Source: Eledone cirrhosa
Taxonomy: Eukaryota
DNA: 64,000 nucleotides
Direction of reading: 5' to 3'
NCBI GenBank assembly: GCA_964016885.1
Contig: OZ024747.1
Coordinates: 19,344,001 to 19,408,000 of the forward strand
The notes under the pieces were generated by a model that was given only the letters and a program-made list of their open reading frames with translations, searched no databases and was not told where the DNA came from. Positions 8,315 to 51,205 of the stretch are shown here, one piece after another. The first letter of the stretch is position 1. Every line of letters begins with the position of its first letter. A program made the position numbers and the translations under genes.

Positions 8315-8604
8315 AACCAAAGATTAGTATGGTTCGTTGATTACTTAATGAATACAATTTTACAATAGATTAGAAGCACTCAACAAATAGTTTTCCAGTT
8401 TTTAATATTATTCAAAATATTAACAAATGAAAAATATTCTCATAATCAAAATATATACTTTATTATGTATATTTCAAAGGTACTTTGTTGTTTTTTAAGT
8501 ACGTCCTCATCAGACAAAATATATGATTTGATATATGACGTACCGCTACGGTCTTGATTATTCAATTCCAGTACTGACAATACTGGAATTGAATAATCAA
8601 GACC
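8315..8604 (-). mobile_element. Short PLE-derived (pLTR-like) insertion with hammerhead motif and terminal 24-bp hairpin
   Basis: Homologous to 12629-13052; hairpin arms 8550-8573/8581-8604; flanked by (TA)n-rich repeats. Confidence 0.7.
8458..8519 (-). ncRNA. Minimal type I hammerhead ribozyme motif
   Basis: Minus strand TTTTGT-CTGATGA-GGACGTAC..GTACCTTT-GAAA-TATACA-TA-ATAAAG. Confidence 0.6.
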
Positions 8605-8692
8605 ATGTGTGTATATATATACATATATATATATATATATAAATATATATAAATATATATATATATATATATATATATATATATATATATAT

Positions 8693-9056
8693 TTAAAAAG
8701 TGAGGTTTTTTTTACAAAATGAAAAATAACGGAGGTGTCCTACACGAGTGAAAGTATAAAGAAAAAAAGATGAAATCGAAAATGCAACTGGAGTCTTATT
8801 TAAAAAAAAATATATATATTTATTTGGTTCCTTTACCGGTTTCGCAGTTCTTCTGCTTTTCAAAAGTAGAGTTGAGATGGAGGGTCTGTGGTTTTTCTCA
8901 CTCGGTAGATGTGAGAAAAACCACAGACCCTCCATCTCAACTCTACGTTTGAAAAGCAGAAAAACTGCGAAACCGGAAAAGGAACCAAATAAATATAATA
9001 TTTTTTTAAAAATAAGACTCCAGTTGCATTTTCGATTTCATCTTTTTTTCTTTATA
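8693..9056. mobile_element. Fold-back pLTR-like insertion in (TA)n with degenerate hammerhead
   Basis: ~147-bp arms 8755-8901/8911-9056; minus strand reads TTGAAAA-GCAG-AAGAA-CTGC-GAAA-CCGG-TA-AAGG (core mutated). Confidence 0.7.
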
Positions 9057-9800
9057 TATATATATATATATATATATATACATATATATATATATATATA
9101 TATATATATACATATATATATATATATACATGTACAAATACATATGTATAGATATATATATATATGTATATATATATATATATACATATGTATATATATA
9201 TACATATATATATATATATATCTATACATATGTATTTGTACATGTATATATATATGTATATATATTTATATATATATATATATATATATATATATATATG
9301 TGTGTGTGTGTATACATATATATATATATAAATATATATATATACATATATATATACATGTACAAATACATATGTATAGATATATATATATATATATGTA
9401 TATATTATATATATACATATGTATATATATATACATATATGTATATATATATATACATATATATATATGTATGTATATATACACGCACACACACACATAT
9501 ATATATATAAATATATATGTATTTGTACATATATATATGTGTATGTATATATATATATGTATATATATATATATATAAATATATATATATATATATGTGT
9601 GTAATATACATGTATATATATATATATATATATATATATATATATATATATATATATATATATATATATATATATAAATAAATAAATATATAAATAAATA
9701 TATATATATATATATATATATATATATAAATAAATAAATATATAAATAAATATATATATATATATATATATATAAATAAATATATATATATACATATATA
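9057..9800. repeat. Complex (TA)n region with inverted/duplicated 28-bp TACATGTACAAATACATATGTATAGATA blocks
   Basis: Block near 9127, its reverse complement near 9219, and a direct copy near 9354. Confidence 0.8.
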
Positions 9801-9883
9801 TATTTATTAAAATAACAGATTAAAGTTTAAGCAAAGTCTTCAATTTTATTATTATTAATATACATATATATATATATATATAT

Positions 9884-10304
9884 TCGGTAGATAAGGAAGC
9901 AAATCAACTCAAGCACTCGATGCCATATTACTTCTTCAAAATAAAGATGACGGAGTAGATTTAGAATGAGGAAAATGTGTAGTTGTGGATGTTAATGAGT
10001 CCTTTATTATAGAGCCGTTATACATATTTCCATGTCGGATAGATATCCTGATTTCATCAGACAGCCAAATTGAGTAAAAGGTAACGTTTCCGAGGCAATT
10101 ATGGGTTGAAGGGAGTGGACTAAATTAGATTTATGTTTGGACAACCAAAGCATAAATCTTTTTTAGTCGCTCCCTTCAACCCATAATTGGCTCAGAAACG
10201 TTTCTTTTACTCAATTTTGCTGTCTGATGAAATCACGATATCGATTGTCATTGAAATATGTATAACGACTCATTAACATCTACAACTTCCCATTTCCTCA
10301 TTCT
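9884..10304. mobile_element. Fold-back pLTR-like insertion with hammerhead
   Basis: Arms ~9963-10140/10145-10304 with a 4-nt loop; preceded by (TA)n. Confidence 0.75.
10013..10066 (-). ncRNA. Type I hammerhead motif
   Basis: GGCTGT-CTGATGA...GAAA-TATGTA-TA-ACGGCT; stem I pairs, stem II is imperfect. Confidence 0.55.
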
Positions 10305-10384
10305 CGCTCTCTTCTCTCGCTCTCTTTATATATATATATATATATATATATATTATATATATATATATATATATATATATATAT

Positions 10385-47855: not shown

Positions 47856-47996
47856 TATATATATATATATATATATATATATATATATATATATATATAT
47901 ATATTGGAAAATGTGTGAAATCCTTGGTACAGTTAGGTATATTTGAAAAAGGAAAAGAATGACTTCACTTGTAGTTCTAAACAATTTGATTTAATT

Positions 47997-48375
47997 TTAT
48001 AATTGTTTCTACATTTGGCACAAGACCAGCAATTACTCAGTAGGTTACTGGTACTTTATTTTATCGACCCCGTAAGGATGAAAGGCAAAGTTAACCTCGG
48101 CGGGATTTGAACTCAGATCATAAAGGGCCGTAACTCGTTGCTGCAAAGCATGGCATCCGACTCTCTACCGATACTGCCAATCCACCATTCGGTGAATTGG
48201 CAGTATTGGTAGAGGGTCGGACATGCTTTCCAGCATAGTTACGTCCCCCTACGATCTGAGTTCAAATCCAGCCGAGGTTAACTTTGCCTTTCATCCTTAC
48301 GGGGTCGATAAAATAAAGTACCAGTAACCTACTGGGTAATTGCTGGCCTTGTGCCAAATGTAGAAACAATTATAA
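47997..48375. mobile_element. Head-to-head inverted pair of SINEs (47997-48186 minus, 48191-48375 plus)
   Basis: Two near full-length SINEs separated by ATTC. Confidence 0.85.
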
Positions 48376-48685
48376 CATTATGAGTTGGTAGATCTAGTAA
48401 GTTCTTTGTTAACTTCGGTGGGAAGATTTTAAAAGATTCCTGGTTAATTTTCCTGGAGAACTCTCTCGCATTCGTCGGTGGCGTATCAATATGTATGAGC
48501 CATTGCCTTTCCCTTGAACGTCATCGGTGGTGTGGAGAGGCGAGGCGTGGGTAACTGTTGGTCTTCGACAAACAACCTTGCCCGGACTTGTGCTTCGGAA
48601 GGAAACGTTCTAGGTGCAAATCCCATGGTCATTGGTGGCCGAAGGGGGTCTTTACCCTATATATAAATATATATATAAATATATA

Positions 48686-48885
48686 ATAACTAGAAATTGA
48701 TTAACATATATATAAACATGAATAATCAAAGGAGATAATTTTTACAAGTGTGTAACCACACATAGCTAGGTAGGTAACTAAATAAAGTTGACCAGAACTT
48801 CAAAAATATGTGTGGTTACACACTTGTAAAAATTATCTCCTGTGATTATTCATGTTTATATATATGTTAATCAATTTCTAGTTAT
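48686..48885. repeat. 79-bp-arm inverted repeat within a (TA)n-flanked insertion
   Basis: Arms 48686-48764/48807-48885. Confidence 0.8.
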
Positions 48886-51037
48886 AAAATGCTCGGACCT
48901 ACTCGTTAGAATCTTAGAGCTTATTTTCCTGGTGATATGGCGCATGTCTTTCTGGCATGACACCCATAATTTTGATTTAGATTAAATTCATTTAATTTAT
49001 CTTAATTTTGGATATAGATATATAAATATATATATATATATACACATCTATATCTATATGTATCTATCTGATCTCTCTTTCTCTCTCTCTCTTTATATAT
49101 ATATATTCTTTTTAATTTTTTATTTCAATACTCAACATTTGATAAGATCAATTTTAATAATACATCGAAACCGGTAATACTTTATACACTTTATATATAT
49201 TATAAAACTTTTTTATAAAAGAATTGTCCCTCTCATTTTTTTAATAATGTCATCTTTTCCACACGCTACGTCAACAGTCAATACCATCACACGCTATGTC
49301 AACAGTCAATACTGTCACCGGAATAACAACACCAATTGATAAATAGAACAGCAACAACTCACAGTGCACTCCCTGCCCTAACGCACTGATCTCTGAGACA
49401 GATATACAGAGTTGATAAACGTTATACATTGAAGTTTATATTTTGCATATAGGAAAGGATGTGGACGCTCTAATCCACCTAAACTAAAAAGGGACAATTT
49501 TCTTTAGGACCACATAGGTATCATTCACGGAGAAAGAGTTCTTGATATTTCCAGTCTTATTTAAAAAACCTTATCTTTATCTTATAACGTCATTTCATCT
49601 CATAGCTCGAAGCAAGATGGATCGGCATCCAATAGAGAGTTGGTTTGTCAAGAAAGAGCTGACAATAGGAAAGAATTCCTGATTTTGATTCTACTAGTTA
49701 TTCAGTTTTGTAAAGAGCGATTCCGCTGAATTATTCACTACAACAAAAATAACTGTATTTCTAATACCTCTGAATAAATTCCTATTCTGTCTTGAACTTG
49801 CATGGACGAGAAATATCTAATAGAAAATATGATTACAATCCAGTTTCTAACTTCTTAAACTAAATTATTATTTCATCTCGAATTTCCACAATTTTCAAAA
49901 TCTGTGATTAAATTATTATTACATCTCATCTTTCAAGGAACAAGATATTTTATATCTGAAGAAGTAATATTTCTCGACAGCGGCGTTCTGCTAGAGAACT
50001 GGTTGTATGTGGCGGATAACAATACGGTCACCAGATATGATGGTTGGTTGTGATATAAACGAGCAACTGCCGGGTGAATTAGCAACCTCTGACCAACAGC
50101 AGTAAACTACCAAGGGGATAGAGCAATAGGTGACACATTTAACATTCAAGAAAGCCCTAACAACCCAGTTATGTCGCTATAATGAGGCGAGTATTATATA
50201 CTTCATACCTTGATAAAAGCTTTGCCACTTTAACTGTATTTATTTGATGATAAAATTAACAAGAATCGAATTCACATTTGACCTATTTAAACTTAATTAA
50301 ATTACCTTCCAAACTAATTATTTAATTATATAATAATTATTCGAGATTATTCAATCTTATACATCTTCCGATTGAAATATGTAACCCTACCTCCCTTGTT
50401 TATACCTAACATTTCCTTTGTGTTTTCCTAATTTACTCTACTCCACTTTAATCTTACATTATACTTGTATATCCTATCATTTATTTTCATTGACTCACTT
50501 CCATACAGTTTGAATTTAAGTTGATGACGTATTTTATATGTGTTTCTTATGACATGACATATTTGTATTTAGCTCAGTGAAAATAGTCGGATTGTATTTG
50601 TTTCGGATCAAATGTACGATATTTTTCTGTCCCTAAATTATTTTAATCCTCTTTATGCTACTTAATATCACTATTATTAGAGCTTCAATTCCAATATAGT
50701 CTATATAATATATATATATATATATATATATTAGTATTATATGTATTATTTATGTAGTTTTCAAATTTGACAGTTTCATTGTTTCTCCACATAAACTGAT
50801 ATCTGAAACTTTTTGTAGATAACACATATACATAATTATTAATACAACACAATTATATTAACGGCAATGTGTTATTAAAAGATATGCAGATTATATATTT
50901 ATCTCGTTACATACTTTAACGGAGTTTAATGAATCTTTAAATGAACATTAAGAGATTTAACAGTAGAAAATATATATTCTAATATACGCATAAACGAATA
51001 TATATATATATATATATATATATATATATATATATAT

Positions 51038-51205
51038 AAGGAACCAGGTGGACCATAACGCACCAGAGTGCTCGATACTTAGGGGAGTAGAGTGGGTAAT
51101 AGGAAAAGAGTCACGACTCCGACGGCTGAGTTCCGACAGCTACATCCGAACTGTTCGGATGTGGCTGTCGGAGCTCACCCGTCGGGGTCCTGACTCTTTT
51201 CCTAT
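51038..51205. mobile_element. Fold-back element in (TA)n, 53-bp arms
   Basis: Arms 51099-51151/51153-51205, centre CCGAAC-T-GTTCGG; homologous to 38459-38675. Confidence 0.8.

Follow-up and report, generated by a model that had tools for sequence, protein, structure and literature searches.

Known systems and the locus

Insertions of Penelope-like elements (PLEs) that bear an endonuclease (EN) combine an inverted, 5'-truncated copy with a tail on one side only (PMC8557442). Inverted pseudo-long terminal repeats (pLTRs) lying head to head have also been described and interpreted as products of self-priming (PMC3846280). Minimal hammerhead ribozymes found on opposite strands 100–700 bp apart were ascribed to truncated PLEs, a U3-A8 core was described, and a circular template was proposed (PMC4209133). 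Members of the Hydra clade of PLEs insert in (TA)n, carry a CxCX5C linker, an RWK motif and DKT instead of DKG, have a C-terminal EN lacking the CCHH motif and are generally shorter than 3 kb; non-autonomous Chlamys elements such as MRC1 are also described (PMC8557442). In vertebrates, retrozymes have been described as PLE derivatives (10.64898/2026.07.22.740005). Furthermore, the PLE protein of an anole (Poseidon PAc) cuts and extends both DNA strands in vitro, with two start sites that mark the limits of the tail (PMC11167929). Here we analyze ten short insertions resembling PLE ends in a 64,000-nucleotide stretch of the Eledone cirrhosa genome (contig OZ024747.1, positions 19,344,001–19,408,000, forward strand; hereafter the window), which is part of a large contig in a 3.0-Gb genome.

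The ten inserts share with the published insertions of EN-bearing PLEs a head-to-head layout, loss of the 5' part, a tail confined to one arm, a hammerhead close to the 3' end and a bias for microsatellites. They differ in having tails of 40–168 nt (113 or 370 nt in one family, I) instead of 30–40 nt and in the dominance of very short stumps, and in that a rule governing their two ends was counted here. We consider it likely, at a probability of about 0.75, that the inserts are stumps of coding PLEs (eight of the ten) and of one non-coding unit, whose arms stop at different fixed points, likely through separate priming by both strands of the target. As a class of element, inverted and truncated ends of PLEs in (TA)n are already known; what is worth keeping is the counted two-end rule and a young family with a 483-nt unit.

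Ten head-to-head inserts in (TA)n

A sequence-only reading of the window had described ten insertions of 170–570 bp in or next to (TA)n, each with a unique tail and an inverted duplication, and had assigned them to several unrelated families. All ten are present, measure 169–567 bp and border (TA)n on one side or both (insert 12625 has (CA)n on the left). Self-BLAST of the masked window recovered the head-to-head duplication in 10/10 inserts as local inverted matches (E 5e-17 to 7e-180), with arms 80–98% identical. The tail is one-sided in every insert and lies on the right in those at 10385, 37585, 47290 and 48686. The inverted duplication was likewise found in all ten, the second arm at 8315 being merely a 28-nt stub. 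The plurality of families also stands, at nine, except that the inserts at 8315 and 12629 belong to one family (A) and those at 38459 (B) and 51038 (B') to sister families. The spans below were measured computationally, and the ends of the inserts at 8315, 9884 and 51038 were read from the sequence.

8317–8606, minus strand: family A stump; tail arm 8317–8579, which has a type I hammerhead (core at 8513); inverted second arm a 28-nt stub
8693–9056: family D head-to-head stump; tail arm 8693–8901 (minus), short arm 8907–9056 (plus); U3-A8 hammerhead core
9884–10326: old head-to-head stump of family E (80% arm identity) whose hammerheads are degenerate; derived from the 3' end of an element measuring 1.3 kb or more
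10386–10817: family C head-to-head stump; short arm 10386–10580 (minus), tail arm 10584–10817 (plus); a hammerhead in each arm
12625–13052: family A head-to-head stump; tail arm 12625–12876 (minus), short arm 12879–13052 (plus); a hammerhead in each arm
37585–37840: family F head-to-head stump; short arm 37585–37700 (minus) with a hammerhead, tail arm 37702–37840 (plus) cut in stem II
38460–38675: family B head-to-head stump; both arms end in hammerhead loop II (half a ribozyme only)
47289–47855: family G head-to-head stump; short arm 47289–47597 (minus), tail arm 47590–47855 (plus); the short-ended arm is the longer
48682–49022: family H head-to-head stump, from a non-coding tandem unit of about 570 nt; arms truncated downstream of the U3-A8 hammerhead in that unit
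51037–51205: head-to-head stump of family B', truncated in loop II; U3-A8 core in the family

The window also contains tail-only or single-armed B' and F fragments (37876–37962, 11000–11045 and 11383–11436).

Two fixed 3' ends and the opposite-end rule

The families extend genome-wide, as the sequence-only reading had supposed, with about 140 to 3,900 first-look candidates each: 2132 for A, 3924 for B, 1051 for B', 138 for C, 367 for D, 732 for E, 1870 for F, 2657 for G and 1860 for H. These numbers are not copy numbers; for each search the best 40 candidates were scored and the best 20–30 loci fetched. Mapping the termini over these copies revealed two modal 3' ends per family, which are separated by 40–168 nt in coding families, by 132 nt in H and, in a circular frame, by 113/370 nt in I. 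The predicted accumulation in TA tracts was borne out as well: TA lies within 6 nt of 532 of the 669 fixed 3' ends (ten families), versus 11% of positions drawn at random from those loci.

Removal of duplicates left 208 head-to-head pairs, from which we set aside six of the family of a PLE at 42661 and two apparent mixed pairs, keeping 200 from ten families. A pair was classified when both of its ends lay no more than 12 nt from a fixed site (161 pairs); the other 39 have at least one damaged or unplaced end. The two arms end at opposite fixed sites in 155 of the 161 classifiable pairs, the exceptions being three with two tail ends and three with two short ends. This opposite-end rule holds in 12/12 pairs of family I and 28/29 of family H. 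Seven of the window inserts obey it by script and two more by eye, as does a 5.5-kb head-to-head pair with coding arms (locus L119). Five apparent B/B' mixed pairs proved to be misassignments, and the candidate at L435 is two separate insertions. We did not find the rule stated in the literature as searched by titles and abstract openings, a search outside which most subscription papers and the Repbase entries lay.

The region is rich in repeats and holds a 200-N gap (13610–13809), so that palindromes could in principle be artefacts of assembly or chimeric reads. We give this explanation almost no credence, because the arms differ by 2–20% and the ends obey a family-specific rule. Opposite-strand joints also occur in short reads from other samples; among the matches listed, all are joints of a repeat at 47992–48380 that resembles a short interspersed nuclear element (SINE). 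This SINE-like repeat dominated the short-read matches to 47292–48990, and no G or H joints were among those listed.

Coding origin of most families

Eight of the ten inserts, when followed upstream in longer copies, reach reverse transcriptase (RT) and/or GIY-YIG frames of their own PLEs. Because the longer family copies run into these frames, the eight inserts are 5'-truncated 3' ends of protein-coding PLE families. Upstream matches were counted on the sense strand against PLE protein, and unrelated neighbours give a background of 1–3 per 25–30 loci. In family A, the RT/EN frame was matched in 25/25 walk loci once some 1.6 kb of non-coding DNA had been crossed; in 24 of these loci the 3' kilobase of A is present too. 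Family B is similar: 24/25 walk loci continue unbroken into the B end and 22/25 match the frame, with frame and end in one piece at L448. The matching loci number 10/25 in family G, where L450 carries RWK, YRDD and CNCHLPDRC (CxCX5C) upstream of, and contiguous with, the G end. Five of 25 family C loci enter a frame encoding YLDD, the linker CX4CxxC and a GIY-YIG domain; locus L118 of this family has 775 uninterrupted codons spanning RT and GIY-YIG, with Pfam matches to RVT_1 (E 4.5e-6, below the cut-off) and GIY-YIG (E 1.1e-5). Thus, single loci with continuity from open reading frame (ORF) to end were found for B, G and C.

The remaining families yielded shorter connections. Eight of 20 longer B' copies reach a Hydra-like EN frame. 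Three of 25 family F loci do so, the EN frame being joined to the F end in L316 and L318 and, with an internal deletion, in L326. The 3' untranslated region (UTR) of L316 contains an internal second tail copy, and about 900 nt of sequence resembling microsatellites lies between that copy and the hammerhead. Family D has its own frame in 1/25 loci (L097, which reaches a frameshifted CxxC/GIY-YIG frame), and L115, read by eye, reaches the last codons. Two upstream walks in family E, covering 1.3 kb, gave a sense-strand match in 0/45 loci and reached no ORF; two or three EN matches in this family were rejected as antisense.

The proteins of A, B, B', F and G are 30–69% alike. The A, B and G pieces had no Pfam match but have YRDD and YIG-T motifs and match each other by BLASTP; for D, F and B' only the EN part was recovered. 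The CxCX5C linker is present in A, B, B' and G, and C and D have CX4CxxC instead and are probably Neptune-like. Six of the eight coding inserts (families A, B, B', F and G) would then be Hydra-like and two Neptune-like. The likeness to the Hydra clade comprises the CxCX5C linker (A, B, B', G), RWK (G only, L450), the C-terminal EN, hammerheads and insertion in (TA)n. The difference is that G spans at least 3.6 kb and has a long 3' UTR.

The inserts had previously been interpreted as short, non-coding, non-autonomous and hairpin-shaped parasites, moved in trans by an RT/GIY-YIG protein such as that of the following element:

42661–46446, plus strand: 5'-truncated PLE; 1097-codon open frame with RT motif YVDD, CxxC and GIY-YIG; minimal hammerhead at 46251

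The general link to PLEs has been upheld, as coding elements with the same 3' ends were found for the eight contiguous inserts, and this contiguity with their own RT/EN frames refutes the parasite explanation for those eight. Short copies do dominate: 70 of 110 B-type arms (in loci not fetched with B queries) stop at a distance of 131–143 nt from the 3' end, with just 8 reaching beyond, a cluster to which alignments breaking off where subfamilies diverge may also contribute. Families H and I are truly non-coding and the E walks met no ORF, as a parasite would predict; among the ten inserts the description holds for 48686 (H) only, with 9884 (E) showing no ORF in 1.3 kb. Nothing ties the 42661 PLE to mobilisation of the inserts, because there is no meaningful DNA common to them, the best being one 23-nt, 34-bit match. 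The junction between arms also differs from copy to copy. The palindrome is rebuilt with each insertion and the transposing unit is not hairpin-shaped, contrary to what had been proposed. Taken together, we regard trans-mobilised hairpin parasites as a very improbable explanation of all inserts. The protein of the window PLE matched no Pfam family at E<=0.1, and a start of this PLE at a unit junction was rejected, as its family tail is a different sequence.

Hammerheads

The sequence-only reading held that most inserts carry a type I core (CTGANGA). Five or six of the ten do have a whole hammerhead, one is doubtful, and in three no more than half of one is left. A strict scan for type I hammerheads returned 5 motifs in the 36 kb of unmasked window versus a mean of 0.01 and a maximum of 1 in 100 dinucleotide shuffles; only 2/5 lie inside the ten inserts (8513, minus strand; 12945, plus strand), the other three being at 11250, 46624 and 47107. 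By eye, the core and three stems were recognised at 8315, 12629, 10385 and 37585 (one arm) and, degenerate, at 9884. Insert 8693 has a U3-A8 core (TTGAAAA) in place of CTGANGA, as do 42/42 family D copies. Insert 47290 has the heptamer (18/20 family copies), and its predicted fold is without convincing stems. In the inserts at 38459 and 51038 the cut falls within loop II and the first half of the core is missing, and 48686 is truncated downstream of the family H hammerhead. Rfam gave no hammerhead match at E<=1 for 46100–47800 and none among the best 150 of 519 matches for the whole window, a list dominated by simple repeats.

A census of cores in the fetched loci identified canonical sequences in A (CTGACGA 53/61), C (39/40), F, E and I, the U3-A8 core in D (42/42), H (7/11) and B' (6/7), and the heptamer only in G. 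Dual hammerheads on opposite strands are shared with the published truncated PLEs, and the U3-A8 covariant core of D, H and B' is likewise on record (PMC4209133). Family B differs in having a mismatched C3/A8 core in 26/31 copies, its sister B' having the paired U3-A8. This abundant family may have spread carrying a dead ribozyme. The hammerhead cleavage site was considered as the truncation hot spot and rejected; in B, arms stop about 45 nt upstream of the cleavage site, in loop II.

Non-coding tandem units

Family H, walked upstream, returns to its own 3' end and defines a head-to-tail unit of about 570 nt, with a longest frame of 61 codons and a U3-A8 hammerhead read by eye. A second family of this kind, missing from the sequence-only reading, lies next to the window PLE:

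46557–47255, plus strand: family I; a non-coding unit of 483 nt, present in 1.45 copies and carrying one type I hammerhead each time (46624, 47107)

Family I has 1742 candidates, of which the best 40 are 99–100% identical, and forms TA-flanked multimers with up to 2.9 units per arm and a longest frame of 81 codons. Private changes are often common to the units of a single insertion (L346, L347, L353, L356 and L357; not in L340), a pattern that would fit repeated copying of one monomer. These are the features of a young, non-coding, retrozyme-like family. Among the fetched loci, no coding partner was found for H or I, older subfamilies only.

H and I are like the metazoan non-LTR (long terminal repeat) retrozymes (PMC7761336; 10.64898/2026.07.22.740005) and non-autonomous Chlamys elements in being non-coding and head-to-tail, with one type I hammerhead per unit, and in occurring as dispersed multimers. 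They differ in having units of 483 and about 570 nt in (TA)n, two fixed ends and inverted arms. On balance, we favor the idea that H and I borrow the PLE machinery of another element, which would act on tandem or circular RNA made by their own hammerheads.

Other repeats of the window and the fetched loci have related features. A further hammerhead family at 11076–11345 (core at 11250, 8-bp stem I) shows inverted joins at other loci and, like family I, was not listed before. Repeated elements at 12195–12345 and 38180–38400 end at (TA)n, have hammerhead-like cores and gave 26 and 20 matches in the fetched loci. In L061 (3943–5418), a unit of about 310 bp is present in tandem and inverted copies that are 96–100% identical, possibly another such non-coding family.

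Proposed two-ended priming and its alternatives

We are highly confident of the family membership of the inserts, their contiguity with RT/EN frames, the two fixed ends, the opposite-end rule, the independent 5' ends and the TA flanks. That two-ended priming caused the head-to-head pairs is a reading towards which we lean by a small degree. The GIY-YIG domain would cut both strands of (TA)n, and each 3'-OH would prime at one or other of two start sites in the element's RNA. As a rule, the two cDNAs would end early, often at a family-specific spot, and be joined via a 0–9 nt overlap or a few filler bases. The one-sided tail would correspond to the stretch between the two start sites. Poseidon PAc is alike in its AT-rich target, in cutting and extending both strands, and in its two start sites delimiting the tail. 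It differs in that the available portions of the anole study report no strand-specific use of the sites and describe no head-to-head products (PMC11167929).

A different origin for the second arm would be self-priming or fold-back of one cDNA or an antisense template, as proposed for rotifer Penelope in the Discussion of PMC3846280. The 5' ends of 110 opposite-end pairs from the non-tandem families bear on this choice. The arms end within 15 nt of each other in 76 pairs, and fold-back explains these near-symmetric pairs equally well. The tail arm is longer in 15 pairs, the short-ended arm is more than 15 nt longer in 12, and the arms do not overlap in 7; in the last two groups (19 pairs) neither arm contains the other. 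The insert at 47289–47855 is one such non-nested pair, and L334 of family I (94–99% identical) is another. Non-nested pairs cannot be simple fold-backs, which favors priming from both DNA ends. Moreover, where the short-ended arm is the longer of the two, fold-back leaves unexplained why copying ended at the other fixed site, and it does not account for a join of two families, seen once in about 200 pairs (L379, a B' tail arm joined to an H-like short arm).

Junctions and shared variants speak on both sides. Most junctions have a few bases of overlap or filler and differ copy to copy, and some have small local snap-backs as expected of fold-back. Non-consensus bases common to both arms exceed those of shuffled pairs in H, A, B and C (0/1000 shuffles) and in I (13/1000), with no clear excess in D, G and F (57–68 of 1000). 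Such sharing would fit fold-back. All considered, we judge fold-back unlikely as the origin of the pairs.

Several points weigh against two-ended priming of coding stumps as we propose it, in addition to the near-symmetric pairs. Later one-sided deletion from a palindrome could give the non-overlapping cases. The variants shared between arms fit one RNA or one source, and also self-copying. The anole study saw no difference in start site between strands, so it leaves the opposite-end rule unexplained (PMC11167929). Most first queries held one end, which fixed the class of that arm (partly chosen by the query), not that of the other arm; the I query was internal, and H combined internal and two-armed queries. 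Only the best 20–30 loci of each search were examined. Finally, family D is probably the weakest coding link, with one frameshifted locus and one read by eye.

Other features of the window

The repeat at 47992–48380, presumably a tRNA-like SINE as judged by eye, is very abundant and forms a head-to-head palindrome in which the 5' ends meet and the 3' flanks are AT-rich; 9 inverted joins were found among its 239 matches in the fetched loci. A further inverted pair is located at 61062–61796. Minus-strand frames at 52068–54449 and 61798–62854 are duplicated at 96% and represent a fragment of a long interspersed nuclear element (515 aa, weak zf-RVT match, E 0.005). The window also contains a 5-kb TA tract.

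A decayed second copy of the 42661 PLE (92%) lies at 33626–36541 and is directly abutted by a 19.8-kb array of a 26-bp unit (13810–33625). The array, preceded by the 200-N gap at 13610–13809, meets this copy at the end of the PLE's asparagine-rich region.

Implications for PLEs and retrozymes

The origin of the tandem and inverted structures of PLEs is called open in PMC8557442 and PMC11167929, and the stumps are a record of the mechanism. At even odds, each strand of a cut (TA)n primes at its own fixed site of the same tandem or circular RNA, and the cDNAs are then linked in head-to-head orientation, which would yield the tail, the inverted pLTR and the partial tandems of all PLEs; young hammerhead circles such as the 483-nt unit of I would be the minimal substrates. 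Thousands of young two-ended copies make two-ended priming testable by counting, and family I provides a 483-nt substrate. Furthermore, H and I lend support from an invertebrate to the proposal that PLE proteins mobilise the retrozymes of animals.

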